Of a stretch of 64,000 nucleotides of DNA, positions 4,991 to 23,861 are shown piece after piece. The DNA is from ANME-2 cluster archaeon (GTDB lineage Archaea > Halobacteriota > Methanosarcinia > Methanosarcinales > Methanocomedenaceae). Where the stretch lies: NCBI GenBank assembly GCA_019429385.1, contig JAHYIS010000003.1, positions 34,825-98,824 on the forward strand. The letters are read 5' to 3'. Positions within the stretch are counted from its first letter, which is position 1; each line of letters begins with the position of its first letter. Made by a program: the position numbers and the translations under genes. The notes beneath the pieces are model-generated. The model ran no database searches. It saw only the letters and a list, made by a program, of their open reading frames with translations, and was not told the DNA's origin.

Positions 4991-4993
4991 ACA

Positions 4994-6661: not shown

Positions 6662-7765
6662 ATGTCTGATGAGCATGTTATTTCGGGGACCATTCTTTAT
6701 GGTGATGAGCCCATGCTTATCGAAGGATACCTGTGCGTGAAAGATGGCATAATCACAGAAGTGGGGACTGATCCGTGTGTAGACGCCACACTGGATGGAT
6801 TGGTGACTCCGTGTTTTGTCAATGCGCATACTCATATCGGTGATTCTATAATCAAGGACCCGCCACTGTCTGACCTGGATAGCCTGGTGCGACCTCCCCG
6901 TGGCCTGAAACATCGTGTACTCGGTGAATCGCTGGATGTCGACCTGAAGCGTGCCATGGACCGGACATTACGTGATATGATGCGCACAGGCACCTGTGCA
7001 TTTTGCGATTTCAGGGAAGGCGGTAGAGAAGGTGCATCCATGCTGGCAGATATCCTTGCCACATCCGCATACTCATCCTCAGGGCTCCAAGGGATGATTA
7101 TGGGCCGGCCTTATCAACCAGACAGGCCGGACAAGGATGAATTAAATGACCTGGTCAAGGTCTGCGATGGAATCGGTATGAGCGGGGTCAATGATGTTCC
7201 ATTCGAAGTGTTACAGGTTGCATCCAGTGTGGCCCGCAGGGAAGGAAAGCCTTTTGCCATACACGGAGGTGAAAAGGATATGTCAGATATCTCAAGGTCA
7301 ATTGAACTGGAGCCTGATTTTATTGTGCACATGACCCATGCTTCTCAGGCACATGTTAAACAGCTGGCAGATGCTGATATACCTGTAGTGGTCTGTCCCA
7401 GGTCGAATCTCGTGACGCGTGTGGGTTCTCCTACCCGCCCTCCGATCGCCAGGATGCTTGACATGGGCGTCACGGTTGCAGCGGGCACAGACAATGTTAT
7501 GTTGAATTCGGTCAATATGTTCTCTGAAATGGAATTCCTTTCAAAGGTATATGGGCTGGAGGACAGACAGGTATTTAATATTTGTACACTAAATGGTGCT
7601 CGGGTACTTGGACTGGCCGAACAATTCGGTTCAATACAGGAAGGAAAAAAGGCAAAGATAATGGTACTGGATAAAAGGTCTTCCAACTTATCTAACTGCC
7701 ATAATATGCTTGCCAGTTTTGTCAGGCGAGGCAGACCTGATGATATCAAGACCATCATCACTTAA
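6662..7765 (+). CDS. amidohydrolase family protein (metal-dependent, chlorohydrolase/deaminase-like)
   Basis: VNAHTHIGDS (HxH metal site), an internal HG/HM His, and a GTDN motif near the C-terminus. Confidence 0.8.
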   Translation: MSDEHVISGTILYGDEPMLIEGYLCVKDGIITEVGTDPCVDATLDGLVTPCFVNAHTHIGDSIIKDPPLSDLDSLVRPPRGLKHRVLGESLDVDLKRAMDRTLRDMMRTGTCAFCDFREGGREGASMLADILATSAYSSSGLQGMIMGRPYQPDRPDKDELNDLVKVCDGIGMSGVNDVPFEVLQVASSVARREGKPFAIHGGEKDMSDISRSIELEPDFIVHMTHASQAHVKQLADADIPVVVCPRSNLVTRVGSPTRPPIARMLDMGVTVAAGTDNVMLNSVNMFSEMEFLSKVYGLEDRQVFNICTLNGARVLGLAEQFGSIQEGKKAKIMVLDKRSSNLSNCHNMLASFVRRGRPDDIKTIIT

Positions 7766-7780
7766 TCGGAGGGAGATTTC

Positions 7781-8233
7781 ATGAAAAGCGAGATATTTAA
7801 GAAAATAGTAATTGCAACGGACGGTTCAGCAAACTCAGAGAATGCCGTTAAGCACGCTATTGAATTAGCACGGATATCGGAAGCCAGCCTTTCTGCTGTG
7901 TATGTTGTGGACACGGGAGCTTTTGCTTCCATTCCTGTTGATATGGCAATGGGCAACATGTATGAGATTTTGAAAACGGAAGGTGACAATGCCGTCAAAC
8001 AGGTGGAAGACCTGGCCCAGGCTGCGGGTATTGAAACAGAACGCTTTACTATTGAAGGTCATCCTGCTGAGGAAATAATTAAATTCTCTGAGAATATTTC
8101 AGCTGACCTCATTGTTATGGGTACTCTTGGAAAAAGCGGTCTTGACAGGTTCTTGCTGGGAAGTGTCGCAGAAAAGGTATCAAGGAACTCACATACACCT
8201 GTTATGGTCGTACGAGGGGAAAACCCCAAATAG
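7781..8233 (+). CDS. universal stress protein (UspA family)
   Basis: KKIVIATDGSANSENAVKHAIELA ... IVMGTLGKSGLDRFLLGSVAEKVSRNSHTPVMVV. Confidence 0.85.
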   Translation: MKSEIFKKIVIATDGSANSENAVKHAIELARISEASLSAVYVVDTGAFASIPVDMAMGNMYEILKTEGDNAVKQVEDLAQAAGIETERFTIEGHPAEEIIKFSENISADLIVMGTLGKSGLDRFLLGSVAEKVSRNSHTPVMVVRGENPK

Positions 8234-8273
8234 TACAAACTCCATCAACAGCCCAAATAGGAGTTTTACAAAA

Positions 8274-9125
8274 ATGCCTGGTTTTACAACAGTTGAAGAC
8301 ATTATGGTACGGGATGTTGCATATGCTTCATTGCCTGGTTCCAGGGACGAGGTACTTGAAATCCTGAAAAATAAACATGTTTCCGGCGTACCTGTGGTAA
8401 AGAAGGATGAGCTTGTTGGTATCGTCACCAGGACTGACCTTTTAAAGTATCCTGAAGAAGAGCAGCTAGCTATCCTGATGCGGAGAGACCCTATTACCAT
8501 CAAACCCGGTGAGTCTATTGTGGATGCTGCCAGGACAATACTCGAACATAAGGTCCGGCGGCTACCCGTTGTTGAAAACAGCACCTTGGTAGGTCTGATC
8601 ACCATCGCTGATATTGTAGGTGCTATTGCAGGTTTGAGTATTTCAGAGCCTATTGGTGATATTATCAGCGACCAGACAATCGTTATCTGGGACAAGACCC
8701 CGGTTTCAGTTGTGGGAATGATCATGGAGATGGCAGAGGTAAAAGCTGCACCTGTAGTGAATGTGAACCGTGAAGTCCTGGGTGTAATAAATGATAAGGA
8801 CCTGATAAATATAAGCGTCATTGAAGATTCGCTTGGGCATTCGGATATGTCTGCGGGTTCGGATGACGATGCATGGACCTGGGAATCAATGCGTGATACA
8901 ATGAGCCTGTATTACAGTGTGTCAAGGATAAAACTTCCGGATTCTACAGTGAGCGAAGTAATAAACCTAAAAAGGGAACCTGTGACCGTTGTACCCAATA
9001 CTACCGTGAGTGATGCTGCAAGGAAAATGAAACGCAACAATATCGACCAGATGCCTGTCCTGTCCGGACGCAATAAACTTATTGGTATGTTGCACGACTT
9101 TGACCTGCTTAAGGCACTGGTATGA
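8274..9125 (+). CDS. CBS-domain protein (four CBS repeats)
   Basis: ORF 8112..9125. The upstream part overlaps usp, so the likely start is ATG 8274 (MPGFTTVEDIMVRDV). Repeated CBS signatures: SGVPVV, RRLPVV, AAPVVN, DQMPVL. Confidence 0.85.
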   Translation: MPGFTTVEDIMVRDVAYASLPGSRDEVLEILKNKHVSGVPVVKKDELVGIVTRTDLLKYPEEEQLAILMRRDPITIKPGESIVDAARTILEHKVRRLPVVENSTLVGLITIADIVGAIAGLSISEPIGDIISDQTIVIWDKTPVSVVGMIMEMAEVKAAPVVNVNREVLGVINDKDLINISVIEDSLGHSDMSAGSDDDAWTWESMRDTMSLYYSVSRIKLPDSTVSEVINLKREPVTVVPNTTVSDAARKMKRNNIDQMPVLSGRNKLIGMLHDFDLLKALV

Positions 9126-9186
9126 GGACACTGTTCGATACATTCATTAGTGATGATAATACATACAGATTTGGAGGTAATCAATC

Positions 9187-9360
9187 TTGACAAAGAAGAA
9201 ACAGACAGGTAGCGGTCTGCAGTCATCAGCTGGACTTATGCGGTATTATGAAGCTGATGAAACCACATTTCACATGGACCCGAAATATATCCTGATAGGT
9301 GGAGTGCTGACAGGATTGCTATTATTGCTGCTCAATTACCGGTTTGGCCTCTGGCCCTGA
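9187..9360 (+). CDS. secG: preprotein translocase subunit Sec61-beta (archaeal SecG)
   Basis: Absent from the ORF track (57 aa, TTG start). GGAGGT lies 7 nt upstream. Translation: TKKKQTGSGLQSSAGLMRYYEADETTFHMDPKYILIGGVLTGLLLLLLNYRFGLWP, i.e. the conserved SAGLxRY motif plus one C-terminal TM. Confidence 0.75.
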   Translation: MTKKKQTGSGLQSSAGLMRYYEADETTFHMDPKYILIGGVLTGLLLLLLNYRFGLWP

Positions 9361-9398
9361 AATCCTTTTTGAGTAATATGACCTTGAAATGACCGGTG

Positions 9399-9956
9399 TC
9401 AGCGAGATTCCGGGTCCAGCCAATCAGCAAATTTTCGCATAGCATTACCCCTATGCGATACCCTGTTCTTTTTGATATCTTCAAGTTCGCCAAACGTCTG
9501 GCCTTCATACAGGAAGATGGGATCGTATCCAAAACCATGCGTCCCGCGTTCTTCAAATGATATGGTCCCTGCAACTTCACCTGTGAATGTACGGGGCTCG
9601 TCGCCGGGCCGGCAGAATCCCACGACTGTCCTGAACACAGCCCTGCGGTTGGTCTCATTTTCCATGAGCTTCAGGACTTTCCTGTTGCCCAGGCGGTCTT
9701 CCACATATCGTGAGTAGGGCCCGGGGAAACCGTTCAGGACATCGATGAAAATGCCGCTGTCGTCCACCATGACATCCCTGTCCAGCCTGTCAGCACACCA
9801 GCGCGCACCATAGGCTGATATGGTCTCAAGGTCATCGGCCTGCAGTTCAGGATATTCGCAATCGAGCTGTTCTACTTCATATCCCACCTCTCCCAGGATG
9901 TTCTTTGCTTCCCTGAGTTTATGGGCATTGCCGGTGGCGAAATATATCTTATGCAT
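9399..9956 (-). CDS. rdgB: XTP/dITP diphosphatase (HAM1/RdgB family)
   Basis: IYFATGNAHKLREA, DDSGIFIDVLNGFPGPYS, GFGYDPIF, SHRGNA. Confidence 0.9.
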   Translation of the reverse strand: MHKIYFATGNAHKLREAKNILGEVGYEVEQLDCEYPELQADDLETISAYGARWCADRLDRDVMVDDSGIFIDVLNGFPGPYSRYVEDRLGNRKVLKLMENETNRRAVFRTVVGFCRPGDEPRTFTGEVAGTISFEERGTHGFGYDPIFLYEGQTFGELEDIKKNRVSHRGNAMRKFADWLDPESR

Positions 9957-10521
9957 ACCGTCCTCTCCTTTCTATCTGTGTTACCCGCTCGAGTACAGCG
10001 TCAGCGCCTGGAAACGTCATGCGATAGGCAGCGGAGAATGCGGATATGAGTTCTTCATGGTCATTGTGCGTGCTTTCGTAGGTCTGGAACAATACATGGA
10101 TGTCCACGCCCTGCGCCTCTACAGAGCTGTCATAATAGGCCAGCCCGAAGTCGATGAGGTATATCCTGCCATTGTGCAGTATCATGTTGGAGGTGGTGAG
10201 GTCGCCGTGTATAATATTGGCAGTGTGGAGCTTACCCACGACGATCCCGATGTCGCCACTCAAGTGGGGTGTGATGATGTCTTTTATTTTCGGGCCTTCG
10301 ATGTATTGCATGGTGATTTCGAAGTCCTCGATGTCGTAGATTATGGGCGTTGACACGCCGCTGCGCCTGGACTCGGAGGTAAGCCGGGCTTCATTCCGGG
10401 TGCGCTCTCTGCGGATAAGGTTATCCAGGGCTTCCAGGCGGTATCCTTTCGGCAGGCGTTTCTTGATGACCATGCCGTCCCTGAGTTCTATGGTGGCTTC
10501 TGCGCCCATGCTGAGGAACAT
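9949..10521 (-). CDS. bud32: Kae1-associated kinase Bud32
   Basis: ~190-aa atypical kinase: RTRNEARL, IIHGDLTTSNMIL, IDFGLA. 8-nt overlap with rdgB. Confidence 0.85.
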   Translation of the reverse strand: MFLSMGAEATIELRDGMVIKKRLPKGYRLEALDNLIRRERTRNEARLTSESRRSGVSTPIIYDIEDFEITMQYIEGPKIKDIITPHLSGDIGIVVGKLHTANIIHGDLTTSNMILHNGRIYLIDFGLAYYDSSVEAQGVDIHVLFQTYESTHNDHEELISAFSAAYRMTFPGADAVLERVTQIERRGRYA

Positions 10522-10894
10522 AGGTGAGGAAAATGACCTGTTGTGATATAAAACTGGCTGTTACCTTTTGCTGTGTATCTTTTCCAGCTCAGGGTCCTGG
10601 AAAAGATCCTGTACGAGGAATGATATGGCAATAGTATGGGACGATACGTCAAAGCGAAACCTCCTGGATATCGGATCAGCCCTCAATCCCAGATGGGGCA
10701 GGCCACTGAGTGCCGGTGTGGACCTGTTCGAGAACATGTTCCTGGATACTGACCCGGGTTCAGGTGGACAGATCAACACAGGCTGCTCAAAAAAGTGGTT
10801 CCAGCGGTTTCGCAGGGATCCCAGCGGTATCCATCTGGTGATCGGCAAACAGCGGGGTGGTATAAATCTGCCATGTGCTTCTTCCTGGCCCGGG

Positions 10895-11008
10895 CCACCC
10901 TCAGGCGGCCCATCTATGTCATCACTGCAGCACCATTAATTCAAACTGGTGGTTCGGTTGGACCAGCCATCCACCTTCAGGCGGCCAATCTATGCCATCA
11001 CGGCAGCA
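10895..11008. repeat. 38-bp imperfect direct repeat (10895-10932 and 10971-11008, 4 mismatches)
   Basis: CCACCCTCAGGCGGCCCATCTATGTCATCACTGCAGCA versus CCACCTTCAGGCGGCCAATCTATGCCATCACGGCAGCA. Spacing is 76 bp. Confidence 0.8.
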
Positions 11009-11096
11009 GATGGGGTCATGCCAGAAGTTGAGGTGTTCGAGGATATCCTACAGGTCCCAAAATGAAGCGTCAAAGTGATTGATTCTCCTTGCCAAA

Positions 11097-12083
11097 CTAC
11101 TGAACTTTCAAATGCTCTTTTCCTGCCTGTGTCGTCTTCCTACCCTGGGGAGTACGTTGAATAAAACCGATCTGGATCAGATACGGTTCATATACATCTT
11201 CAATAGTCCTGACCTCTTCCCCCACTGAAATGGCAATGGTTTTCAGGCCCACGGGTCCACCTTCGAAATCATCTGTTATTATACTAAGTATACGCCTGTC
11301 AAGTTCATCCAGGCCCAGCTTGTCTATACCCAGCATAGTCAGCGCATCATCAGCAACTTCCTGAGTTATCGTTCCATCAGCCCTAACAAGTGCAAAATCC
11401 CTTGCACGCCTCAGTAACCTGTTAACAATTCTGGGCGTTCCACGGCCGCGTTTAGCAATTTCTACAGTCCCATCTCGGGTTATGGGGATACGCAGGATCG
11501 AAGCACTTCGATGCACTACCTCCACAAGTTCCCTAATAGTGTAATGATTTAGCCTGAAAGTAATGCCAAATCGATCCCTGAGCGGTGAACTCAGCAGTCC
11601 TATCTTTGTGGTTGCACCAATAAGAGTAAAATGTTCCAGGTTGAGCTTTATTGACCTGGCACTTGCCCCCTCCCCTATCATCACATCTATTTCCATATCC
11701 TCCATAGCAGGATACAAAATCTCTTCAATAATTGAATTCATGCGATGGATCTCATCAATAAAGAGTACATCTCCTTTTTTAAGTGAAGTAAGTATTGCGG
11801 CAAGGTCTCCGGCCTTTTCCAGGATAGGTCCTGAAGTACTTTTTATACTGACTCCCATTTCATGTGCGATAATATTTGCCAGAGTGGTTTTTCCAAGACC
11901 AGGTGGTCCTGAAAATAAGATGTGGTCAAGTGGTTCACCCCGCTTTTTTGAGGCTTCAATAGCTATTTTTATTGATTCCTTTATGATATTTTGACCTATG
12001 AACTCATCAAGTTTTATGGGGCGGATGGTTGAATCTTCTGTTTCATGATCCTGCTCTGAAGGAGAGACTATTCTTTCTTCCAT
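11097..12083 (-). CDS. ruvB: Holliday junction branch-migration ATPase RuvB (bacterial type)
   Basis: [11 protein letters not shown], Walker [12 protein letters not shown], Walker [22 protein letters not shown], and C-terminal winged helix [10 protein letters not shown]...[17 protein letters not shown]. Confidence 0.95.
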
Positions 12084-12085
12084 AT

Positions 12086-12676
12086 TTACTCTTTAACTTC
12101 TTTTAATTTCAACAGTGCTGCCTTAATTAATACTTCGATCGATGGTGCTTCAAAATCCGCAGATACAGCATCTACAGCTTCCCTGGACTCTCTTTGTTGA
12201 AAACCCAATGATACAAGAGCACTTACTGCATCATAATTGATATTACTGGTGCTGGTGGGAACAAATCCTTTCATTTTCTTTTTCATCTTATCCTTTAATT
12301 CCAGTATCAATCTCTTAGCATTTTTCTTGCCAATTCCTGAAATATTTGTAAGGACTTTTTCATCCTCATTGAGGATCGCACTGGCAAAATCTTCTAATGT
12401 AATTTCAGAAAGGATCTTCAAAGCTATCTGGGGCCCGACTCCTGAAACGCTAATTATTAATTTGAACATCTCAAGTTCGGTTGAGTTCATGAACCCGTAG
12501 AGATTGAGCGCATCCTCCCTGACATTCAGATGCGTATAAAGTGTTACGTGTGATTGTTTCGTAAGTTCCTGTAATGCCGGTTGCGGAACATTTACATGAT
12601 ATCCTATTCCTCCGACATCAATAACAACAAAACCTTCACCACATTGCGCAATTTCGCCACGTAAATGTGAAATCAT
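12086..12676 (-). CDS. ruvA: Holliday junction DNA-binding protein RuvA
   Basis: MISHLRGEI...GYHV OB-fold N-terminus. Two HhH motifs ([13 protein letters not shown]; [16 protein letters not shown]). C-terminal domain III. Confidence 0.9.
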
Positions 12677-12680
12677 ATCA

Positions 12681-13151
12681 TTATCTCATTATATGTATAT
12701 GACATAAAGCAATCGAAAGACCATCAGCCGCATCATCAGGTCTGGGAAGTTCATCCAGACCCAGAAGCCTTGTTATCATCTCCTGCATCTGTCGTTTATC
12801 AGCACGTCCTGTACCTGTTATCGCCTGCTTGATTTGAGCCGGTGTATATTCGAATAAAGGTATTTGTTTTTGTTGTGCAGCAAGTAATATCACCCCTCTT
12901 GCTTCACTTACCCTCATTGCAGACGTGACATTTTTATTGAAAAAGAGTTTTTCAATAGCGACAATTTGAGGATTGTACTTTTCAAAAAGCGTTTTGATCT
13001 CATTATAGATCTCCAGTAGGCGCTCTGATGTTTGTTTTTCAGCAGAAGTTCGAATACATCCATAGCTTACAGGAATGATCTTTTCTTCTGATTTTTGTAT
13101 TACTCCAAAACCAACGGTTGCAAGTCCCGGATCGATTCCGATAATGATCAT
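12681..13151 (-). CDS. ruvC: crossover junction endodeoxyribonuclease RuvC
   Basis: ORF 12681..13202. Family-typical start MIIIGIDPG at 13151. Motifs: AIEKLFF, EYTPAQIKQAITGTGRADKRQ, DDAADGLSIALCH. Confidence 0.9.
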   Translation of the reverse strand: MIIIGIDPGLATVGFGVIQKSEEKIIPVSYGCIRTSAEKQTSERLLEIYNEIKTLFEKYNPQIVAIEKLFFNKNVTSAMRVSEARGVILLAAQQKQIPLFEYTPAQIKQAITGTGRADKRQMQEMITRLLGLDELPRPDDAADGLSIALCHIHIMR

Positions 13152-13171
13152 GGTATTTTTCTCGGCGATTA

Positions 13172-13636
13172 TTAGCTTTCGTATTTTTCTATATAATCCC
13201 AAATTTCTTGATCGGTTTTTGGCATATTACCTTCAAAAAATGTCTTTATCCATTGTAAATACCCAATTCCACTTGGACTTCTGTGTTGCTTCACAAGTTT
13301 GATTAAAAGTCTAACACATGAAATAATCTCCCCATAAGTAAAACTCCTTTCTCCCTCAATTCTGTTAAGCATCAATTGACCTTTCACAGATTGTGAGATG
13401 TTATACGCAAGCGAACCTTTCTTTTGACCATCGAAATCTTTTTTGAGCTTATTGTACGCAGATAACACTGTTTTATCTTTAAGAGCGGGATTTTCCTGCC
13501 ACATAAATAAAACTACGGATTCTATACTGACAAATATTTCATGATAATCGGCTATATCCTCAATAGCCACTTTTCCGTTACCGTTTTCGACCAATTCTGC
13601 CAATTGTTGATTTACATGAACCCTTGTGTTCTCCAT
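13172..13636 (-). CDS. hypothetical protein
   Basis: 154-aa ORF with no recognised domain. It lies 20 nt upstream of ruvC on the same strand. Confidence 0.5.
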   Translation of the reverse strand: MENTRVHVNQQLAELVENGNGKVAIEDIADYHEIFVSIESVVLFMWQENPALKDKTVLSAYNKLKKDFDGQKKGSLAYNISQSVKGQLMLNRIEGERSFTYGEIISCVRLLIKLVKQHRSPSGIGYLQWIKTFFEGNMPKTDQEIWDYIEKYES

Positions 13637-13828
13637 ATATTTTCACCGCCCTTGTGTTCTATAAATAGATTTGTACTTACGCCGCCACTTACCGATGCAT
13701 TGCGCCTTCCATCAATTTATCGCCTCGGTCTGATTTCTTGAAGCTATCATTTTTCTGATGAGCTCTCAGGTATGCATATTGGAAGAATTTCATATGCATA
13801 CATTATTTTCCGGATAATCGTCCCATTT

Positions 13829-14398
13829 TCACTTTATGTGGGCTAACCTCTGATTAATTTCATCAAGGTCAAAGTATTCAGGATCAAAATCATAATCCAG
13901 CCAATCCACCATTTCTTCATGCTCGGGATGTTGCGGATCTTTGAGGATTTCAAGGAGTTCATCATATCCATAAGGACCGCCACAATCTTCCGGAGGACAG
14001 TCACGTTTACCCTTAAGGCAGACCGGATAGTGTTTATCTACTTCCAGAGGGAGGATTTTTTCAACCAGGATTATGTGATACCAGGAATCCCCAAAATCGT
14101 ATTCGTAGATGAATTTAGTATTTTCTTCAAAGACCACCTGGCTTAATGTTATTGTTCTTTCATCAATCACATCAAACATATCAGCCGGGTCAGGTTCACC
14201 ATATATCATTCCATCTATGATAAACTGATGAAGGTGATAACCGTCCCACCCCATCAATTCCTGAATAATGACATGAAGTTTAGATAATGTAATATCGCTT
14301 TTAACCTGTATTCGTCTCCAGATGGGTGGTTTTATCTCATCAAGTGTTACTTTTATCTGATAGATATGAATATCTTCATTCCGTTTCTTTTTAGGCAT
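13829..14398 (-). CDS. pRiA4b ORF-3-like (MM3350-like) domain protein
   Basis: IYQIKVTLDEIKPPIWRRIQV...LSKLHVIIQELMGWDGYHLHQF...YEYDFGDSWYH is the family signature as I recall it. C-terminal CPPEDCGG. Confidence 0.75.
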   Translation of the reverse strand: MPKKKRNEDIHIYQIKVTLDEIKPPIWRRIQVKSDITLSKLHVIIQELMGWDGYHLHQFIIDGMIYGEPDPADMFDVIDERTITLSQVVFEENTKFIYEYDFGDSWYHIILVEKILPLEVDKHYPVCLKGKRDCPPEDCGGPYGYDELLEILKDPQHPEHEEMVDWLDYDFDPEYFDLDEINQRLAHIK

Positions 14399-14541
14399 GA
14401 CAATCACCAATTTCTTATGGAATAATGTCCTGTTAATCGGTTATTAGATTTTCGATTAATTTGAGGAGATTGACTGCATACGAAACCTGAATAAGAAATG
14501 TTTATGTTGTAAAAAATTAATTAATTTCCACTCTCATAAAT

Positions 14542-17500
14542 ATGATCGCACTACATGGAACCTGGAAACCGTCAGAAAGAATAGACACACTGGGAGATTT
14601 CTTCATATGGGGTGAGTTATCCACAGCTTCCACCATCAAACGCAGAGGGCGCCCTCCAAAGATCTCTGCCAGTACACCCCGGCCTCATCCATTTCAGGCC
14701 CCAAACGAGGACCTGAACCGGGTGATAGCATTCCTGGAAAATGGCAATGACAGCATAATCACTAACAGGACATATCAGGATAATGTATTGTTATCGCTTC
14801 CTTCATTTTCAAAATCTCCCCAGGCATCACCTGATTTACTAAGAGATGATGGCAGTGAGGAGACAGATGAGCCAGTGGGTCTAATACCATGGAAAGTACA
14901 TGGTTTAAGCATTCTTCCCCAGGACGCAGTAACATTACTCAACTCACTCTCAGGAGCATGGATCGAATATGACAACACTGTCATTGGAACCGATCTGAGG
15001 TTCTGGAGTAATGTCTCAAAATTTGCACTTGAACTGTTATCAAACCAGCATTTTTTTCCTGGCATGGTTATTTCTGAAGAAAGTAAGATATTTTCCAGAT
15101 GGCAGTATATGCTCAATGATGAGGAAGACAGGATGCGCTTTTCAATCCTTGCAAACTCAATGCCTCCTGTTTGCAGATCACTCCTCCAGAATACTATTCC
15201 AAATACCCGGGAAGCTCTCATATCGGATTTTCTCAATAGTAGCATTAACGGATGTATCAAAAACTGGATGTCAATCTCAGAGATCAAATCAAAAAAGCCC
15301 GGTCTCTCTGAAATATGGTTACGATCCCTGACAACCGGAGAACCGATACAAGTCAATAAGTCAGTTCTTAACAACCTTTCAAAAGGTTTACAATCATGGG
15401 AAGCCCCGATACATGAAATTGAAAAATCCGGATTTCGCACATCGTTCCGGCTTGAACCCCCCATTGAGGAGGAAACAGACATCTGGAATATGCGCTATTT
15501 TCTTCAGGCTTCGGATGACCCAAGCCTGCTTGTGCCTGCTGAAAAAGTCTGGAAAGAATCAAAAGACACACTTAATTTCCTTAACCGTAAATTCGACCAA
15601 CCCCAGGAAAAACTTCTTGCCGATCTTGGGAAAGCCTCCAGGCTATACCCTCCTATCGAGGCCAGTCTCCATTTAGCAAGACCCACTGCCGCCCGGCTTA
15701 GCACGCAGCAGGCTTATTCATTTTTAAAAGAAGTTGTGCCCTTATTTTCAGAGAGCGGATTCGGGGTCCTTATTCCACCATGGTGGAAAAAAGGGGGATC
15801 AAGTTCGAAGCTTGGTGTAACATTAAATGTGAAACAAAAGAAAGACCCTAAAACCAGCAAAGGATTGTTCGGTTTTAACTCAATTATCCAGTACGACTGG
15901 CAGATCGCCATTGGCGGTGAGCAGTTAAGTGAAGAGGAATTTGAGAATCTTGTAAACCTGAAAGAGCCGCTTGTACGCATCAGGGGAGAATGGGTAGAGG
16001 TCAAAAATGAAGATATTGCAGCTGCTATTAAATTCTTCAAATCCGGAAAATCAGGTGAGATGAAACTGGACGAAGCCCTCAGGCTGAGCGCCGGACTTGG
16101 AGAATCGGAAACAGGCCTCCCAGTTGGCGGATTTAATGCAACCGGAGTGCTATCCGAGCTATTTGAGCGTTTATCAGGGAGAACCGGAATAGAAGATTTA
16201 ACACAGCCCGGTGATTTTGTTGGTGAGCTTCGACCTTATCAGGTCAGGGGCTTCTCGTGGCTTGCGTTTTTGCGGGAGTACGGACTGGGAGCATGCCTTG
16301 CAGATGATATGGGACTTGGTAAGACGATCCAGCTTCTTGCCCTGCTCATAAAGGATAAAGAAGAAGGCATCAATAAACCAACCCTCCTGATATGTCCCAC
16401 TTCCGTAGTTGCTAACTGGTATCGGGAAGCGCAAAAATTTGCACCATCCCTCAAGGTTATGATACATCACGGCACAGCCCGGCTGAAGAAAAATGAATTC
16501 CATTCCGAAGCTGTCAAATTCGACCTGGTCATCAGCACCTATGCCCTTGCTTACCGGGATGAGGATATGTTCGAAAATGTGGATTGGAGCGGGGTTGTGC
16601 TGGATGAAGCGCAGAACATTAAGAACCGGTTCACAAAGCAATCCCAGGCTGTCCGTAAAATCAAATCAGACTATCGAGTGGCCCTTACAGGCACACCTGT
16701 TGAGAACCGTTTATCAGAACTCTGGTCTATTATGGAGTTTTTAAATCCGGGCTACCTCGGCTCGGCAGAAGGTTTCAGGAGAGGTTTTGCGATGCCTATT
16801 GAACGCTATAATGACAAAGAAGCAGGCATGAAGCTTCGAAGTATTGTTTCACCATTCATCCTTCGCCGCCTCAAGACAGACCCTGCCATCATAACAGACC
16901 TGCCTGATAAAATTGAGACAAAGGTATACTGCAACCTTACAAAAGAGCAGGCTACACTCTACAAGGCTGTTGTTAAAGATGTGCTTGAGAGAATCGAAAG
17001 CTCAGAAGGAATTGAAAGAAAAGGGATCGTGTTATCAGCACTTACAAGATTAAAACAGGTATGCAATCACCCGGCGCAGTACCTGGATGACGGTTCGGTA
17101 CTCCCGGGACGCTCAGGCAAGTTGAATCGTATCACTGAGATGATGGAAGAGGTGATAGCTGAAGATGATGCTGCGCTTGTCTTCACCCAGTTTTCCGTGA
17201 TGGGAAACATGCTTAAAACGCATCTCCAGCATGTCTTTGGCCAGGAGGTACTCTTTTTGCATGGCGGAGTGTCCCAGAAACAGCGGGACCATATGGTTAT
17301 GAGATTTTCAGAAAAGGGCGGACCCCGGATATTCATTCTTTCACTCAAAGCTGGCGGGGTGGGTCTGAACCTCACCCGTGCCAGTCACGTGTTCCACTTT
17401 GACCGGTGGTGGAACCCGGCCGTTGAGAACCAGGCAACAGACCGTGCTTTCAGGATCGGGCAAACCAAAAATGTGCAGGTTCACAAGTTTGTGTGCGAAG

Positions 17501-17655
17501 GGACTCTTGAAGAGAGGATAGATGAGATGATAGAGGATAAGAAAGCACTTGCCGAGAATGTTGTTGGGACGGGCGAGGGCTGGCTGACAGAGATGTCGAC
17601 CGAGCAGTTGAAGGGTTTATTTGCATTGAGGCAAGAATCAGTGATGGATGAATAA
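14542..17655 (+). CDS. SNF2-family helicase with a long N-terminal SNF2-associated region
   Basis: 1037 aa. Helicase core from ~aa 560: LRPYQVRGFSWL, LADDMGLGKT, VLDEAQNIKN, LTGTPVENRL, SLKAGGVGLNLT, WWNPAVENQATDRAFRIGQ. Confidence 0.9.
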   Translation: MIALHGTWKPSERIDTLGDFFIWGELSTASTIKRRGRPPKISASTPRPHPFQAPNEDLNRVIAFLENGNDSIITNRTYQDNVLLSLPSFSKSPQASPDLLRDDGSEETDEPVGLIPWKVHGLSILPQDAVTLLNSLSGAWIEYDNTVIGTDLRFWSNVSKFALELLSNQHFFPGMVISEESKIFSRWQYMLNDEEDRMRFSILANSMPPVCRSLLQNTIPNTREALISDFLNSSINGCIKNWMSISEIKSKKPGLSEIWLRSLTTGEPIQVNKSVLNNLSKGLQSWEAPIHEIEKSGFRTSFRLEPPIEEETDIWNMRYFLQASDDPSLLVPAEKVWKESKDTLNFLNRKFDQPQEKLLADLGKASRLYPPIEASLHLARPTAARLSTQQAYSFLKEVVPLFSESGFGVLIPPWWKKGGSSSKLGVTLNVKQKKDPKTSKGLFGFNSIIQYDWQIAIGGEQLSEEEFENLVNLKEPLVRIRGEWVEVKNEDIAAAIKFFKSGKSGEMKLDEALRLSAGLGESETGLPVGGFNATGVLSELFERLSGRTGIEDLTQPGDFVGELRPYQVRGFSWLAFLREYGLGACLADDMGLGKTIQLLALLIKDKEEGINKPTLLICPTSVVANWYREAQKFAPSLKVMIHHGTARLKKNEFHSEAVKFDLVISTYALAYRDEDMFENVDWSGVVLDEAQNIKNRFTKQSQAVRKIKSDYRVALTGTPVENRLSELWSIMEFLNPGYLGSAEGFRRGFAMPIERYNDKEAGMKLRSIVSPFILRRLKTDPAIITDLPDKIETKVYCNLTKEQATLYKAVVKDVLERIESSEGIERKGIVLSALTRLKQVCNHPAQYLDDGSVLPGRSGKLNRITEMMEEVIAEDDAALVFTQFSVMGNMLKTHLQHVFGQEVLFLHGGVSQKQRDHMVMRFSEKGGPRIFILSLKAGGVGLNLTRASHVFHFDRWWNPAVENQATDRAFRIGQTKNVQVHKFVCEGTLEERIDEMIEDKKALAENVVGTGEGWLTEMSTEQLKGLFALRQESVMDE

Positions 17656-17678
17656 TGGAATATACGGATAGTTGAATC

Positions 17679-18563
17679 ATGGGCAGGTATGAAGACTTCT
17701 GGGGCGGCTATACTCCTTCAAAGCCAATACAGGTGGAAGGCGGTATCAAAGCCAAAAGCAAGAAGGGCAGTATCGGAGATACCTGGTGGTCAAAACGTTG
17801 GGTGAGTGTCCTGGAATCCTTTGGCTGGAGCAACCGGCTTGAGCGGGGAAGACGATATGCCAGAAAAGGCCAGGTGCTTGATTTTGAACTTTCGGCCGGA
17901 AAAGTCGAAGCAAAAGTCCAGGGCTCGGTCCGGAAACCTTATTCAGTTACTATTGAGATTAAACCGATTACTGAAAAATCATGGGATTATGTCATAGAAG
18001 AGATGTCTCAAAAGGCAATATTCGCAGCAAAACTACTTGCAGGCGAGATGCCACATGATATTGAAGAAGCCTTTGAAGCAGAAGATATATCGCTGTTCCC
18101 TGAAAAATCGAAAGATATAAAGACGCACTGTTCATGTCCGGATAGTGCAAATCCCTGTAAACATATTGCTGCACTGTATTATATTTTGGCTGAAGAGTTT
18201 GACCGTGACCCTTTCATGATCTTTGAATTGCGTGGCCGGACAAAGGATGAAATTATTTCATCTCTTCGCCAGAAGCGCACTGACGAAAGCCATCCTGAAC
18301 CAGAAGAAATTTTTGATGTTGCGCAAGTAAAGGAAGTTGCTTTGTCCATGGATGATTTCTGGGAAGGGGGGGATAGCGAATCATTTTCAGTTAATATCTC
18401 GCTACCTGATGTATCGGCAGCAATTATCAAACGGCTGGGAACACCGGAATTCTGGGATAGCAAGGTCGATTTTGTAGAGAAAATGGGCGGGTATTATGAA
18501 GAGATTAGCAGGCGCGCTATTGTGACTGCTTATTGTGAACAGACAAAAACGAAAAAGAAATGA
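17679..18563 (+). CDS. SWIM zinc-finger protein
   Basis: CSCPDSANPCKHIAALYYIL matches the CxCxnCxH SWIM motif. The N-terminal WWSKRW...RLERGRRYARKGQV is typical of the SNF2-partner family. 23 nt downstream of the SNF2 gene. Confidence 0.85.
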   Translation: MGRYEDFWGGYTPSKPIQVEGGIKAKSKKGSIGDTWWSKRWVSVLESFGWSNRLERGRRYARKGQVLDFELSAGKVEAKVQGSVRKPYSVTIEIKPITEKSWDYVIEEMSQKAIFAAKLLAGEMPHDIEEAFEAEDISLFPEKSKDIKTHCSCPDSANPCKHIAALYYILAEEFDRDPFMIFELRGRTKDEIISSLRQKRTDESHPEPEEIFDVAQVKEVALSMDDFWEGGDSESFSVNISLPDVSAAIIKRLGTPEFWDSKVDFVEKMGGYYEEISRRAIVTAYCEQTKTKKK

Positions 18564-18798
18564 AACAATGAGTCTGATCAATACTCCAGGATAAGCCTGG
18601 GAGACTATGAACTGGAGGGTGTAGACGATATCGGTATTGATGACTTTAGCCAGGAAGAGTTCCTGGGTGACGAGGACGACCTGCGGGGTGACTTCCCGGG
18701 AGATGCAGATGGGCTGCTGGGAGCCTATGCCGGCAATGTGGACCGCTACGTGTTCTGAAGCGGCGAAGTGATGAACTGGGTGGCCATTCTTCAAGCGC

Positions 18799-18978
18799 GA
18801 CTCCATGCTGGTCAAACTTCACATGCTTGATCGTCAGGTTTCCAATCTCGCTGATCCTGGCGCCGTTCACATATAAACTGGCTATCAATGCTCTGTCTCT
18901 GGGATGTTCGCAGGCATTGATCATATTCTCGATCTCTTCCCCACTCTGCAGGTCTTCAGGAAGCTTATGTGAATGATT
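18799..18978 (-). pseudogene. tyrosine recombinase/integrase fragment (decayed)
   Basis: Minus-strand frame reads ...PEDLQSGEEIENMINACEHPRDRALIASLYVNGARISEIGNLTIKHVKFDQHGV, the integrase core-domain signature. A stop lies immediately upstream, similarity is lost downstream, and no catalytic R..HxxR..Y region is recognisable. Confidence 0.6.
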
Positions 18979-19243
18979 TCAAGACGATATTTTTATCCAC
19001 TCTATAGTTTCATCCATATCCAGCCATCTCAGTTAATATCTTCAATTCAATCAAGTGTTTCAATACTCTTGCTATCTTCAAACCTTCTGAAAAACAAAAA
19101 CTCTCAAACTAAAAAATCAGTTGTTTATTTTCCTCAGTGATGCTGGAATTTCTGATTCTCCCTTCAACAGATTTAAGATTCTGTTCAAGGTTGTACAACA
19201 TGTGTTATCACATTCCATTCTAATCTCTTAACCACTCAGGAAG

Positions 19244-19306
19244 CGAAGTGAAAGTATTCGAAGTGAAAGTATTCGAAAAAAGGTGAGAATCGAACGTGAA
19301 ATTTTA
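19244..19306. repeat. 15-17-bp tandem repeats abutting the tRNA-Leu 3' end (2 perfect CGAAGTGAAAGTATT plus 2 degenerate)
   Basis: 19244-19258 and 19259-19273 are identical. 19274-19290 (CGAAAAAAGGTGAGAAT) and 19291-19306 (CGAACGTGAAATTTTA) are degenerate. Confidence 0.75.
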
Positions 19307-19391
19307 TGCGGGGGAAGGGATTCGAACCCTTGAACTCCTTCGAGAATAGATCTTGAGTCTATCACCTTTGGCCTGGCTTGGTTACCCCCGC
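19307..19391 (-). tRNA. tRNA-Leu (anticodon CAA)
   Basis: Manual fold of the reverse complement: acceptor GCGGGGG/CCCCCGC, D arm ACC..GGT, anticodon stem ATAGA/TCTAT with loop CTCAAGA, long variable arm, T arm AAGGG-TTCGAAT-CCCTT, discriminator A. Confidence 0.9.
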
Positions 19392-19407
19392 ACAGGGGAA
19401 ATGGGAA

Positions 19408-19740
19408 TTACCTGTCCTGGAGCGTCTCAACCTCTTCAACGATCCTGCGACCGGCCGCAATCTCATCGATACTGTGAATAACAGCGCCCATATCCTCTAT
19501 GATCTCTTTGATCTGTTCATAGTTCAGGTCATCGCCTTCAATGGTCACCTTAATATTCTCGGTCTGCTGGTCAACTTCATACAGGCTCAGGTTTACGCCG
19601 CTTATGTTTTCCAGTTCACTCAATGCCGTAGCATATTCAAGTATCAATGGATGATGAGGTTTCAAAACATCCAGAACCAATCGTCTAATTCCTACCACGT
19701 GATTTATCCATCCTGATGTGTGTACTCTCAATACAAACAA
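19408..19740 (-). CDS. DUF211-like conserved archaeal protein
   Basis: [20 protein letters not shown]...[31 protein letters not shown]. The true start may be GTG at 19698. Confidence 0.7.
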
Positions 19741-19835
19741 TAACTTATAACTCTTACTACATTCAAATCATATCATCATATACCTCATAAATACGTATAT
19801 ATGGTGAAAAACAAAAGAATATCTGGAGTGGTACT

Positions 19836-20237
19836 ATGAATACTTCACGATATATTTTCTTATTAACAATAGGTATTGCCGTGATCAGCATTGGAACGGC
19901 AGATGCCCTGACAAGATCAGGGGAATGGGAAGCCGCTTCTCTGGTATCCGACAATCGAATACCTGCCGGGTCTAATATCACTGAAGACCATGAGATCAGG
20001 CTGCCGCAGGGAAATGCCGGTCCAGTGAGAGTGATCGTCTGACTGCTGTACAGAACAGCTCCCCAGGCTTTTATCGATGAAACTTTTGGCAGTGCAGCCG
20101 AGAACGTACCTCTGGTGGAAATGGAAAAAGGAGAATTTACCGTTCATGAAGAAGCCACAGGCATACCCGGATTTGGAATGGTACCATCTTTCATCATGAC
20201 AGGAATTGTGTTTATTCTGTTCGGTAGACGGGATTGA
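19836..20237 (+). pseudogene. small secreted PGF-CTERM protein interrupted by one in-frame TGA (20040-20042)
   Basis: N-terminal signal peptide MNTSRYIFLLTIGIAVISIGTADA. After the TGA the same frame stays open for 64 codons and ends ...EEATGIPGFGMVPSFIMTGIVFILFGRRD*, a canonical PGF-CTERM tripartite signal. Confidence 0.6.
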
Positions 20238-20405
20238 TTTCAATTCCTCCTCCCTATTTTTCAGGATACAGAGTTTAACGCTACCTGTTCAGGTTAATCC
20301 GAACGATATTCCGGCTTTGCTTAATGAGGTCAATTTTATTGGAAAGAGCACCATCACCATCCGTTTCAGAAACCCTTAAGTCAATATCAACTCAACTGAT
20401 TGCTA

Positions 20406-23150
20406 ATGAAATTCCAGATACTGGATGCCGATTATACCTACGACGACCTTGAAAACCCGGTCATCCGCCTCTTCGGCCGTGATGATGCAGGCCAAAGTGT
20501 TTGTTGCTTCGTGCCCGGATTCAAACCCTACTTCTTCCTGAAACCACACCCCAAACACAATCCTGATGAACTGGCAGAAAAGATCAAAACCACCTTCAAT
20601 GAGCATGTCACAAACGTGCAGGTCACCCCGCGATTTGAACCTGTAGGTTACTTTAAAGCACCTATTCCCATGCTCAAGGTCATTCTCAACGACCCGAAAG
20701 GCGTGCCTGCCATACGGGACGATGTGCTTCAATTACCCGGCGTTGCCAGCATATATGAGACCGACATACTGTTCCGCAACCGCTTCCTTATCGATTCAGG
20801 TATCGGTGGCATGTCCTGGGTAGAGACCGGCTCCGAACCACTGCAGGGGGACAAGTTCAAAGGTATCAGCCTGATCGGCGTGGATTGCCAGGTCAGGACC
20901 GTGTCAGATACCATAACCCCGCAGGATGTCATCACCAACGCGCCCCTGCGGTACATGGCATTCGACATAGAATGCCTGCCAATGGACGGCGCCATGCCCA
21001 CACCGGACCATAGCCCGATAATCATGATAAGCTGCGCTTTTGAGCCAGCATATAATGGTAAGAGCACCACGGTCCTGGTGGGTAAGGACGCTGACGGGCT
21101 TGAGAGTGATTCCGAGGCGTTCGCTGACGAGATCGGAATGCTTGAACGGTTCTTCGAGATAATCAGGGAATTCGACCCGGATGTATTTGTCGGGTACAAC
21201 TCGAACAGCTTCGACATACCCTATATCGTGGACAGGATCAGTACCCTTGAGAAAGAACGCAAAGTGAAACTACGGCCGGTCATGGGTCGGGACGGCCGTT
21301 CGGTCTACTACCGCAGGATAGGCACCATGACCAGCATAAACATCACCGGTCGGGTAGTGGTTGACGCGCTTCCCATCATAAGGCGGGATTTCAGCCTGAA
21401 GCGCTACACCCTCAGGAACTCTGCGCAGGAATTGCTGGGCAGGGAAAAACTGGATGTCAAACCCTCGGAGATGGAAGAATACTGGCACGACACCGGTGAT
21501 AAGTTCCATTCTTTCGTAGATTATGCCAGGCGCGACTCTGAACTGGCACTGGAACTGGTACTCAGGCTGAGCCTGCTGGACAGGTTCTGGGCACTGTCCA
21601 GGGTCAGCGGTACCCTGGTGCAGGATATCCTCGACGGCGGCCAGACCAATATGGTAGAGAACATTCTCATGAAAGAGTACCGCGCCCATAACAGGGTAAT
21701 GCCCCCAAAACCTGACAACGATATTTCCCAGCAGCGGCACATGATCACCGAAGAACTGAAGGGCGGCGAAGTACTGGACCCGAAAAAGGGGCTACTGGAA
21801 GATGTGGTGATACTGGACTACAAGTCACTCTACCCCACCATCATGATGGCCCATAACCTGTGCTATACCACCGAGATAGTCGACGGGGACCAGGTGCCGG
21901 ACGGGGACTTTGAGACTACTCCCTCGGGCGGCAGGTTCGTATCTGCGCAGGTGCAAAAGGGCATTGTCCCCTCCATCCTGGCAGGACTGCTGCAGCGCAG
22001 GGTCGAGACCAAACAAATGATGAAACATGCATCCGGGGACGAAGCCCGTGCCCTGGATGCCACACAGCTGGCTCTCAAGATATTGCTGAACAGTTACTAT
22101 GGTTATTCAGGTTATACCAGGGCACGACTGTACAGTCTCACAATGGCGAATTCGGTGACCAGTTTTGGCAGGGAGAATATCCTCAATACCAGGGACCTGG
22201 TAGAAAAGCGCATCGATAGCATCTATCTCTCCAACGGTGATGCGTATGTCCAGGAAGAACTCCCCGGGGCAGGACTCAAAACCGATGAGCTGCAAAGGTT
22301 CAACCTGTCCGTGGTCTATGGGGATACGGACAGCGTGTTCGTAAAACTATCCCCTGAAGGCATCTCCCTGGAGGATGCCGGTGCTGTGGGGCAGAAAATT
22401 GCCAGGATCGTATCTGCAAAACTACCTGACCCCATGGAACTGGAATTCGAAAGTTTTGCCAGGCGCTCAATATTCATTGCCAAGAAACGCTATGCAGTAT
22501 GGGTATTTGAACCATCTGCCAGTGGCTGGTCTGACAGTATAAAGGTCAAAGGCATGGAAACGGTCAGGCGGGACTGGTGTGAACTTACCAGCAAGACCCT
22601 GAACAGGGTACTCGAACTGGTATTGAAGGAAGGGAGGGTCGAGGATGCGGTAAGCTATGTACGAGGAGTTATCAACAGTGTGCGCAACATTGACTTTGAA
22701 AAAGACCCTTCGGTCCTGGAAGACCTGACACTCACCCGCAGGTACACCAAGAAGAGCGAGAATTACCAGAACAAACAACCTCATGTCATGGTTATCGAGA
22801 AAATGAAAAAACGGTCCGGTTTTGTGCCGCCCATCGGGGACAGGATCCCCTTTGTCATAATAGCGGGACCGGGACTGCTTGCTGACAAGGCAGAAGATCC
22901 CGAATTTGTGAAAGAGAACAACCTGTCGCTGGATGTTAACTACTACATAAAGAAACAGATACTGCCACCCGTTGAGCGCATCCTGCGTGAGTTTGGAGTG
23001 GATGCATCATTTTTGGATTATGATGAAAAACAAATGGGGCTGGGAGATTTCGGGGGGGGTGGCAGCATTGTGAACGAGCATGTAGCCACACAGGATGACA
23101 TGGGACCAAAAAAAGCGAAAAAAAGCCAGTCAAAACTATTTGATTTTTAA
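20406..23150 (+). CDS. polB: family-B DNA polymerase
   Basis: Exo motifs FDIE, YNSNSFDIPY, YARRDS. Pol motifs LDYKSLYPTIM, KILLNSYYGY, YGDTDSVF. C-terminal PIP-like QSKLFDF. No intein. Confidence 0.95.
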   Translation: MKFQILDADYTYDDLENPVIRLFGRDDAGQSVCCFVPGFKPYFFLKPHPKHNPDELAEKIKTTFNEHVTNVQVTPRFEPVGYFKAPIPMLKVILNDPKGVPAIRDDVLQLPGVASIYETDILFRNRFLIDSGIGGMSWVETGSEPLQGDKFKGISLIGVDCQVRTVSDTITPQDVITNAPLRYMAFDIECLPMDGAMPTPDHSPIIMISCAFEPAYNGKSTTVLVGKDADGLESDSEAFADEIGMLERFFEIIREFDPDVFVGYNSNSFDIPYIVDRISTLEKERKVKLRPVMGRDGRSVYYRRIGTMTSINITGRVVVDALPIIRRDFSLKRYTLRNSAQELLGREKLDVKPSEMEEYWHDTGDKFHSFVDYARRDSELALELVLRLSLLDRFWALSRVSGTLVQDILDGGQTNMVENILMKEYRAHNRVMPPKPDNDISQQRHMITEELKGGEVLDPKKGLLEDVVILDYKSLYPTIMMAHNLCYTTEIVDGDQVPDGDFETTPSGGRFVSAQVQKGIVPSILAGLLQRRVETKQMMKHASGDEARALDATQLALKILLNSYYGYSGYTRARLYSLTMANSVTSFGRENILNTRDLVEKRIDSIYLSNGDAYVQEELPGAGLKTDELQRFNLSVVYGDTDSVFVKLSPEGISLEDAGAVGQKIARIVSAKLPDPMELEFESFARRSIFIAKKRYAVWVFEPSASGWSDSIKVKGMETVRRDWCELTSKTLNRVLELVLKEGRVEDAVSYVRGVINSVRNIDFEKDPSVLEDLTLTRRYTKKSENYQNKQPHVMVIEKMKKRSGFVPPIGDRIPFVIIAGPGLLADKAEDPEFVKENNLSLDVNYYIKKQILPPVERILREFGVDASFLDYDEKQMGLGDFGGGGSIVNEHVATQDDMGPKKAKKSQSKLFDF

Positions 23151-23169
23151 ATTCACGAAGGAGTTTACC

Positions 23170-23814: not shown

Positions 23815-23861
23815 GAAACCGCTGCCAAACGATTATCACTCTGAACGAATAATGGGATAGT

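Follow-up and report, generated by a model that had tools for sequence, protein, structure and literature searches.

The DNA analysed here, referred to as the window, is a stretch of 64,000 nucleotides (nt) on contig JAHYIS010000003.1 from an archaeon of the ANME-2 cluster (ANME, anaerobic methanotrophic archaea), and the locus under study is the ANME-2a-species-specific DNA at 10557-19305, which runs from the core gene block ending in bud32 to a tRNA-Leu(CAA) gene. This locus is probably a mosaic, in which the decayed remnant of an integrative element holds a relocated chromosomal block, and not one island. The ends of the species-specific DNA are the wrecks of two convergent genes, a P-loop ATPase pseudogene restricted to ANME-2 (10557-11089, plus strand) and a tyrosine-integrase pseudogene (18793-19201, minus strand), and between them lies a conserved ANME-2a block of SWIM, SNF2, a variable spacer, an orphan gene and ruvCAB (11090-18594). 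In the proposed sequence of events, an integrative element, possibly a provirus, would once have resided at the 3' end of tRNA-Leu(CAA) and would have decayed to the integrase and ATPase stubs; the SWIM-SNF2-ruvCAB cluster would have entered the dead element by illegitimate or homologous recombination, without this integrase; and the locus would now segregate as alternative deletion or insertion alleles, two conspecific metagenome-assembled genomes (MAGs) lacking 10794-19085. A preliminary description made from the sequence alone had outlined nearly the same segment (10522-19391) and had read it as an island integrated at the tRNA and then immobilized by decay of its integrase. The synteny break at the tRNA, an integrase of mobile-element type and the block-less relatives support part of that reading, but the view of the block as cargo delivered by the integrase is opposed by breakpoints that fall in pseudogenes, by a TAG stop codon shared between the alleles and by the residence of the block elsewhere in other genomes.

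Two alleles in conspecific strains

The block-less allele was found on contig L142 (JARGFX010000007.1, 66 kb, of assembly GCA_029211005.1; contigs of relatives are designated L with a number). With blastn, L142 1-10169 aligned to window 583-10793 and L142 10199-10517, which contains the tRNA-Leu and a 15-bp duplication, to window 19086-19403, both at approximately 98 % nt identity. In place of the 8,292 bp at 10794-19085, present in the window, L142 has about 29 nt, and its open reading frame (ORF) P0140 crosses the junction: after ATPase codon 56 it continues directly in antisense to the N-terminal part of the integrase. A near-identical junction ORF (3 substitutions) is encoded in MAG SCH39, where consecutive accessions put it between bud32 and polB; junction ORFs P0140 and P0186 mark the block-less allele. 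The distance from bud32 in L142, and likewise in SCH39 by accession order, is about 0.5 kb to tRNA-Leu and 4.8 kb to polB, and the block is missing. The preliminary description had proposed a synteny comparison with relatives that lack the block, and these two genomes answer it, lacking 10794-19085 at about 98 % flank identity. The segment is thus absent from the same site in close relatives, where integrase and ATPase stubs remain and the breakpoints lie off the tRNA.

Both breakpoints are inside pseudogenes, one in the ATPase and the other in the integrase, rather than at the tRNA or at an attachment (att) repeat, and the junction shows no microhomology beyond a run of A. The approximately 29 nt of other sequence at the junction correspond to the C-terminal end ('LDKTHFSSSS') of P0127, an ATPase of nearly full length, and the block-less allele therefore keeps an ATPase 3' end that the window lacks. 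P0127 is encoded on a 3.1-kb JGI contig, where the ATPase frame continues into an integrase stub. The window keeps integrase DNA at 18793-19085 that is missing from the block-less allele. Each allele retains sequence that the other has lost, so that neither can be derived from the other, and, as judged from the aligned sequences, their common ancestor had a complete ATPase gene and at least 135 integrase codons. The in-frame TAG at 19109-19111 of the integrase is in shared DNA and is identical in the window and L142; because it is common to both alleles, the integrase was probably already dead when they diverged. That the integrase did not make the presence/absence polymorphism is established in part, because the stop is in both alleles, the breakpoints are inside pseudogenes and an att repeat is missing.

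Distribution and composition of the block

With blastn, 11090-18594 matched six loci (L081, L083, L084, L092, L093 and L094) at 84-95 % nt identity, the homology ending at most 10 nt from the ruvB stop codon on one side and about 30 nt beyond the SWIM stop codon on the other. In species-level relatives the block is 84-88 % identical, equal to the polB flank (84-88 %) and to the TBP-bud32 flank (85.5 %, L095). The order SWIM, SNF2, variable spacer, orphan and ruvC-ruvA-ruvB, and beyond these a convergent Fer4 gene and a SAM synthetase (MAT) gene, is found in L081 and L084, the latter also having toxin-antitoxin genes in the spacer. In L094 a partial SNF2 gene and the spacer precede ruvCAB-Fer4-MAT; L093 has this run but no upstream context, and in L092 other genes lie upstream of it, without SNF2-SWIM. 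The closest copy is that of L083 (93-95 % nt), and its downstream flank differs. In Methanoperedens, ruvCAB occurs alone among housekeeping genes. Across ANME-2a genomes the flanks of the block are thus of at least three kinds. A tRNA was detected in none of the five block loci scanned (L081-L085), and no gene in these contexts gave an integrase match in Pfam.

The best 120 RuvB homologues were all 78-97 % identical to the window protein, and those with a source name all came from ANME-2, Methanosarcinales MAGs or Methanoperedens (named Methanoperedens approximately 79 %), while relatives in IMG/VR were 56-59 % identical, which is a bacterial level. An 11,963-bp contig encoding HUW68061-68066 has a RuvB 97.6 % and an orphan 99 % identical to those of the window. 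RuvB has been reported in Methanoperedens and in its extrachromosomal mini-Borg elements (bioRxiv 10.1101/2023.08.02.551345). A RuvB protein considered as the copy of a block-less MAG, MDF1558311, proved to belong to a different MAG of the same batch. The cargo is not foreign to the lineage, other ANME-2a species carrying the block elsewhere with core-like divergence. Comparison with these genomes shows the block to be an old resident cluster of ANME-2a (ruvCAB also of ANME-2d) that changes its position, and not the cargo of an element; the cluster appears old and vertically inherited because its divergence equals that of the flanking core genes.

The composition of the window was measured in 2-kb intervals (mean GC 0.473, standard deviation 0.039). 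The GC and tetranucleotide analysis that the preliminary description had proposed agrees with an AT-richer block for ruvCAB, the orphan and the pRiA4b-like gene only: from 11.5 to 15 kb, which also takes in the start of SNF2, GC is 0.38-0.40 (z -1.9 to -2.4), but over most of SNF2 and SWIM (15.5-18.5 kb) it is average at 0.47-0.48 (z about 0). GC at third codon positions is 0.30-0.37 for ruvCAB, the orphan and the pRiA4b-like gene, 0.47 for SNF2 and 0.63 for polB. The intervals at 11.5-15 kb are among those with the largest tetranucleotide distances, and the zone at 62-64 kb is equally deviant. In every ANME-2a relative examined the GC of ruvCAB is 0.40-0.41; the low value is common to the relatives and is therefore no mark of recent arrival in the genome of the window. 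Elsewhere in the window, the zones 62000-64000, 59000-60500 and 4500-7000 have GC of 0.36-0.42 and tetranucleotide z of up to +3.4, and deviate as much as the ruvCAB zone or more.

Integrase pseudogene and tRNA-Leu(CAA)

A tRNA-Leu(CAA) gene, which the preliminary description had placed on the minus strand, was located at 19306-19392 of that strand by ARAGORN and Rfam (54 bits), and was the sole match in an Rfam scan of the whole window. Homology with outgroup L013 ends at 19306, the last base of the tRNA, and contig L002 begins at 19307, so that a tRNA stands at the boundary and synteny ends at its 3' end. L013 carries the same tRNA-Leu without any integrase. In the variable arm, at about 19340, the window reads CTCGAAGGAG and L013, L009 and L142 read CTCGCAGGAG; by eye the difference falls in the loop of the arm, and ARAGORN and Rfam still call the tRNA.

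An integrase is found next to this tRNA as a pseudogene alone, at 19201-18793 of the minus strand, identified from Pfam and NCBIfam matches, collinear tblastx to contig L086 and DNA alignment. It starts with an ATG at 19201, 104 bp downstream of the tRNA 3' end, and is oriented like the tRNA. The recognizable tyrosine-recombinase fragment (about 18799-18978) matches Pfam PF00589 at E=4e-6 over profile positions 6-59 of 172, and the archaeal XerA model of NCBIfam (XerA_Arch) over positions 98-151 of 263 with 39 bits against a cut-off of 220. In-frame stop codons are present at 19109-19111 (TAG) and 18979-18981, and about 125 bp are missing, with a frameshift, near 19025-19029. The tblastx matches to the L086 integrase are collinear (window 19279-19151, 19108-19025 and 19029-18793), and homology is lost at 18793, past the first catalytic Arg motif (ARISE), the sole motif to survive. 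The complete PF00589 catalytic domain (R...K...H-x-x-R...H/W...Y) is therefore not present, the match covering profile positions 6-59/66 of 172; the L086 relative, unlike the window integrase, keeps the HLFRHNR and Tyr region. The fragment had been described as truncated on both sides and as preceded by about 260 bp of AT-rich non-coding DNA. It is indeed truncated at 18793, but its N-terminal side is interrupted rather than truncated, and the supposed non-coding DNA is the decayed 5' half of the integrase gene, as tblastx to L086 indicates. GC over 18793-19305 is 0.386.

A related integrase is carried on four short Logan contigs (L086-L089) and is 61 % identical in amino acids over the shared part; a homologue search with the fragment returned only three short ORFs, the window's own among them, and a scan of viral contigs with the integrase gave no relatives. 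In L086, the only contig of the four reaching far enough upstream, the integrase lies directly after a tRNA-Pro(GGG), and the DNA just after tRNA-Leu in the window can be aligned with that just after tRNA-Pro in L086. The reconstructed L086 integrase is 40 % identical over 98 % of the length (E=1e-68) to the integrase of Geoglobus acetivorans pleomorphic virus 1 (BK065156.1). On these similarities the window integrase is classed as a mobile-element integrase rather than XerA, because the L086 relative resembles a pleolipovirus integrase and the XerA score is 39 bits where 220 are required. The integrase of L086-L089 is itself split into at least three frames; the lineage has two known members, this one and that of the window, and both are decayed.

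Tandem repeats (19244-19307) lie between the start codon of the integrase and the 3' end of the tRNA; the preliminary description had counted four units of 15-17 bp. Two of these are perfect 15-bp copies (19244-19273; Tandem Repeats Finder (TRF) score 68), and the two degenerate 17-bp units that follow, recognized from the unit sequences and alignment, extend up to 19307. L142 has the same 15-bp duplication and L086 a single copy. No att site at the far end (attR) had been found by eye, and the direct-repeat search that had been proposed was run: no second copy of the tRNA 3' end was found over the full 64 kb, where a 22-mer allowed 3 mismatches at most hit nothing but itself, and a short-word BLAST of 19230-19400 against the window gave only chance matches of 9-15 nt, the best of them 12-15 nt long. 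A distal direct repeat of the tRNA 3' end was thus not detected in the window.

The conserved block and the integrase remnant are separated by 198 bp of filler DNA (18595-18792, GC 0.57). This DNA had no homologue by blastn or tblastx among all fetched loci and is unrelated to the DNA that follows SWIM in L081 and L084. It was also considered as a continuation of the integrase, which was ruled out by the lack of tblastx homology and by a frame unlike the sequence of the relative.

ATPase pseudogene beside bud32

The 575-bp gap at 10522-11096, between bud32 and ruvB, is not empty but holds the ATPase pseudogene (ATG at 10625). A six-frame Pfam search of 10500-11110 gave no match; the gene was recognized from a full-sensitivity search with an antisense open frame, followed by reading of the homologues' contigs, and from alignment with L141 and L142. 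The homologues have a Walker A motif (GKQRGGKS) and a Walker B motif (VCVIDDAQ) on the strand opposite to the query frame, and those with a source name are nearly all from ANME-2 or Methanosarcinales MAGs. On contig L141 (97.8 % nt, same argD...bud32 flank) the ATPase is intact beside bud32 up to the contig end. Compared with L141, the window gene has a 2-bp insertion near 10862, with destruction of the Walker A lysine, and a 76-bp tandem duplication (10895-10970 and 10971-11046; 38-nt cores 89 % identical). Homology is lost after 11058, at approximately codon 119 of 234-258, and the 31 bp at 11059-11089 are without a match in any fetched sequence. Truncated versions of the gene are found in many ANME-2 MAGs.

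Searches of Pfam, PHROGs, the Protein Data Bank (PDB) and a phage collection gave nothing significant for the ATPase family, and no curated family, phage or plasmid protein was found. Comparison with the pleolipovirus P-loop protein gp07 gave E=2 with BLASTP and a probability of 0.3% with hhalign, and a scan of viral contigs with the ATPase gave no relatives. On L139, a 2.9-kb metagenome contig, DNA of the ATPase gene (223-846, 79.5 % identical) lies immediately upstream of a gene like that for type I restriction HsdR (1269-2879).

Alternative explanations for the locus

The layout can also be read as a single island, extending from integrase to ATPase, that integrated whole at tRNA-Leu, after which the integrase decayed, the block-less allele arose by internal deletions and attR eroded. 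Such a history would be possible if the element captured the cluster before integrating and the other alleles are deletions, and we regard it as rather unlikely. It accounts for the exact placement of the block, with the wrecked integrase on its tRNA side and the wrecked ATPase at its other end, for its strain variability and for the AT-richness of the ruvCAB-pRiA4b part; deletions alone would derive both alleles from an ancestor in which everything was present, and the three or more flank contexts in ANME-2a mean that the block has moved. However, the same block is chromosomal beside Fer4 and MAT genes in other ANME-2a, without integrase or tRNA, its core-like divergence and the common low GC of ruvCAB look vertically inherited, no att repeat is left although the strains have diverged by only about 2 %, and no mobile-element gene lies inside the block. 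Unlikely, too, is the proposal that the 7.5-kb SWIM-SNF2-ruvCAB cluster is a movable recombination/repair cassette, that is, exchangeable accessory DNA in ANME-2a; it is put forward because the cluster ends sharply a short way beyond the stop codons of ruvB and SWIM, has at least three flank contexts and is present or absent within one species. If the cassette were real, a bacterial-type Holliday-junction resolvasome would be accessory DNA, present in some strains and missing from others, and exchange would proceed by recombination between strains or via extrachromosomal elements.

An assembly or binning chimera at 11058/11090 and 18594/18793, in which case the block beside tRNA-Leu would be unreal, is very improbable. 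The junction ORFs of the window occur in one contig only and the contigs of L002, L141 and L095 break here, where population heterogeneity may confuse assemblers, but the joined parts share no repeat, neither junction is a clean switch, each holding unique filler (31 bp and 198 bp), and the window ATPase has extra lesions of its own, consistent with a distinct decaying allele. No better is the proposition that an element never existed here; on this view the integrase fragment would derive from a chromosomal recombinase paralogue that decayed, and the tRNA gene would simply lie in a hot spot of rearrangement. The XerA model is the fragment's best NCBIfam match and the tRNA-Leu/polB neighbourhood is rearranged in many relatives (an insertion sequence (IS) transposase in L009, IS110 in L001, an aminotransferase and a cytochrome in L012 and L142), yet the XerA score is 39 bits against 220, the closest full-length relative of the family is a pleolipovirus integrase, a related integrase with homologous upstream DNA follows a tRNA-Pro, which is the signature of tRNA-targeting elements, and L013 has the same tRNA without integrase; we consider this the least probable of the explanations.

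The mosaic of element remnant and relocated block that we favour has points against it as well. The ATPase was tied to no known mobile-element family in the searches made, so that its membership of one element with the integrase is putative. Neither allele is ancestral to the other, and their comparison gives the polymorphism no direction. The two junctions of the window are known from just one MAG contig. Outgroups offer no clean empty site, since bud32 and tRNA-Leu are not neighbours there.

Genes of the block

The genes listed in the preliminary description were confirmed: RuvB, RuvA and RuvC, a 154-amino-acid (aa) orphan, PRiA4_ORF3, SNF2 (here with DUF3670) and SWIM. On the minus strand, ruvB (11097-12083; Holliday-junction branch-migration helicase; Pfam RuvB_N, AAA_lid_4 and RuvB_C at full length) and ruvA (12086-12676; RuvA_N, HHH_5 and RuvA_C) are intact, and ruvC (12681-13151; Pfam RuvC at full length) encodes 156 aa from the same ATG as in relatives, whose genes also encode 156 aa; the mechanical ORF list had extended it to a TTG at 13202. 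All three genes are full length, lie 2-4 bp apart in one operon and exceed the NCBIfam equivalog cut-offs (RuvB 497.6 bits against 282; RuvA, TIGR00084, 205.1 against 85; RuvC, NF000711, 230.5 against 163), and RuvC also matches the bacterial RuvC structures 6lw3 and 1hjr of the PDB at E of about 1e-33. By family membership, RuvAB would migrate Holliday junctions and RuvC would resolve them. Directly upstream of ruvC is the orphan gene (13172-13636, minus strand), which has no Pfam or PHROG family; it is kept at the same position in L081, L084 and L085 (72-99 % identity) and is missing in L083, and its single-sequence AlphaFold model, with a mean confidence (pLDDT) of 48, was unusable.

A gene of the pRiA4b ORF-3 family (PRiA4_ORF3-like, 13829-14410, minus strand; PF07929, E=2e-73) lies in the spacer between SNF2 and ruvC; the window and L083 have it, and L081, L084 and L094 do not. 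This spacer (13162-14541) is a hot spot of small genes, with the pRiA4b-like gene and the orphan in the window, the former alone in L083 and the latter alone in L081. In L084 it holds ADSL_C, PBP and a gene for a PIN toxin, preceded by a small ORF; in L094 there are ORFs of 75 and 270 aa, and in L092 MazE and small ORFs.

The SNF2-family helicase gene (14542-17655, plus strand) has a DUF3670 N-terminal region followed by SNF2-rel_dom and Helicase_C in Pfam, and scores below the cut-offs of the NCBIfam SCO1167 (740 against 1200) and sll1366 (508 against 550) helicase models. PADLOC matches to it covered only the generic helicase core (residues approximately 460-1010), and its assignment as Zorya ZorD, Dpd DpdE or DISARM DrmD was rejected (the NCBIfam ZorD model gives 289 bits and requires 1500); the partner genes of these systems (ZorABC, Dpd, Drm) are missing from its neighbourhood. 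Immediately downstream is a SWIM zinc-finger gene (17679-18563, plus strand; Pfam SWIM, E=5e-6). The SNF2-SWIM pairing is also present in L081 and L084, and a partial 201-aa gene at the contig end of L083 is collinear with the window SWIM. Beyond the SWIM stop codon the frame remains open for 64 more codons (18564-18757) with an acidic tail (DYELEGVDDIGIDDFSQEEFLGDEDDL), a continuation not seen in the SWIM genes of L081 and L084, and this open frame has probably arisen by chance or belongs to a piece of some other gene. Pfam, PADLOC and PHROG scans detected no mobile-element gene inside the block.

Flanking regions

PolB of the window is 88-91 % identical to that of 'Candidatus Methanocomedens' and ANME-2 cluster MAGs, as expected of an ANME-2a-type archaeon. 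The final gene of the conserved left flank is bud32 (9949-10521, minus strand; Kae1-associated kinase), identified from Pfam RIO1/kinase matches and the name Bud32 in a source record, and synteny through bud32 is shared with L095, L141 and L142. Homology with L095 covers window 3757-10556, and L141 and L142 match the flank at approximately 98 % nt. A scan for promoters and terminators, which is ill-suited to archaea, gave counts at the level of shuffled sequence.

On the tRNA side, two more strain-level indels lie within 1 kb of the tRNA. L142 has 2.2 kb (10518-12705) with an aminotransferase gene that is absent from the window, which has 19404-19411 there, then DUF211 (L142 12706-13227, window 19412-19933), then 0.95 kb (13228-14179) with most of a multihaem cytochrome gene that is also absent from the window (junction 19923-19933), and then polB onward (L142 14180-20345, window 19923-26132). 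The aminotransferase (445 aa), which lies between tRNA-Leu and DUF211 in L142, is just beyond DUF211 on the side away from polB both there and in L012, a contig that is 87 % identical; in the same two contigs a multihaem cytochrome c gene (454 aa) lies between DUF211 and polB. The window and L013 are both without these two genes. In other relatives, an IS110-family gene is present upstream of polB (L001, 1114-2316) and the C-terminal part of a transposase just past tRNA-Leu (L009, 23-595). Several contigs of relatives end at the locus: the end of L002 coincides with the tRNA 3' end, L141 stops within the ATPase gene, L095 extends 113 bp beyond the point upstream of bud32 where homology ceases (some 150 bp from the start of that gene), and L081 stops about 320 bp beyond a small ORF overlapping SWIM. 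These ends suggest population heterogeneity that breaks assemblies.

Significance and comparison with known systems

The combination of a tRNA, a dead integrase and AT-rich genes looks like a textbook island and can mislead, the AT-rich genes here being old residents. The locus is a genuine plasticity hot spot, with three indels within 10 kb around tRNA-Leu and polB at approximately 98 % nt identity between strains of an uncultured ANME-2a species, and this helps in judging MAG contiguity and population heterogeneity. Remnant and relocated cluster are both of known kinds and amount to ordinary genome plasticity; the understanding of integrative elements and of RuvABC is unchanged. The question is raised whether RuvABC, otherwise conserved across ANME-2a and ANME-2d, is dispensable in some strains.

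The SNF2 and SWIM genes resemble the DUF3670-SNF2 and SWIM pairs of the SCO1167/sll1366 families in domain architecture and in the immediately downstream position of the SWIM gene, but score below both NCBIfam cut-offs and fall outside Zorya, Dpd and DISARM. The 2002 description of the SWIM domain is said to have already linked it to SNF2 ATPases. With pleolipovirus-like proviruses the locus shares the integrase type, through the 40 % identical L086 relative and an N-terminal domain layout still recognizable in the window, but 10.5-19.4 kb contains no VP3/VP4-like structural or Rep genes and the ATPase has no significant similarity to gp07. Like tRNA-linked islands and other decayed elements, it has an integrase 104 bp past a tRNA in the same orientation, a synteny break, strain variability and pseudogenization; unlike them, the window is without an att repeat, its variable segment ends in pseudogenes and its cargo is a lineage-wide chromosomal cluster. 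The genes of that cluster correspond to bacterial RuvABC in that all three pass the equivalog cut-offs and form a tight ruvC-ruvA-ruvB operon, and differ in their archaeal host and in the ANME-2a-specific 154-aa orphan that precedes ruvC.

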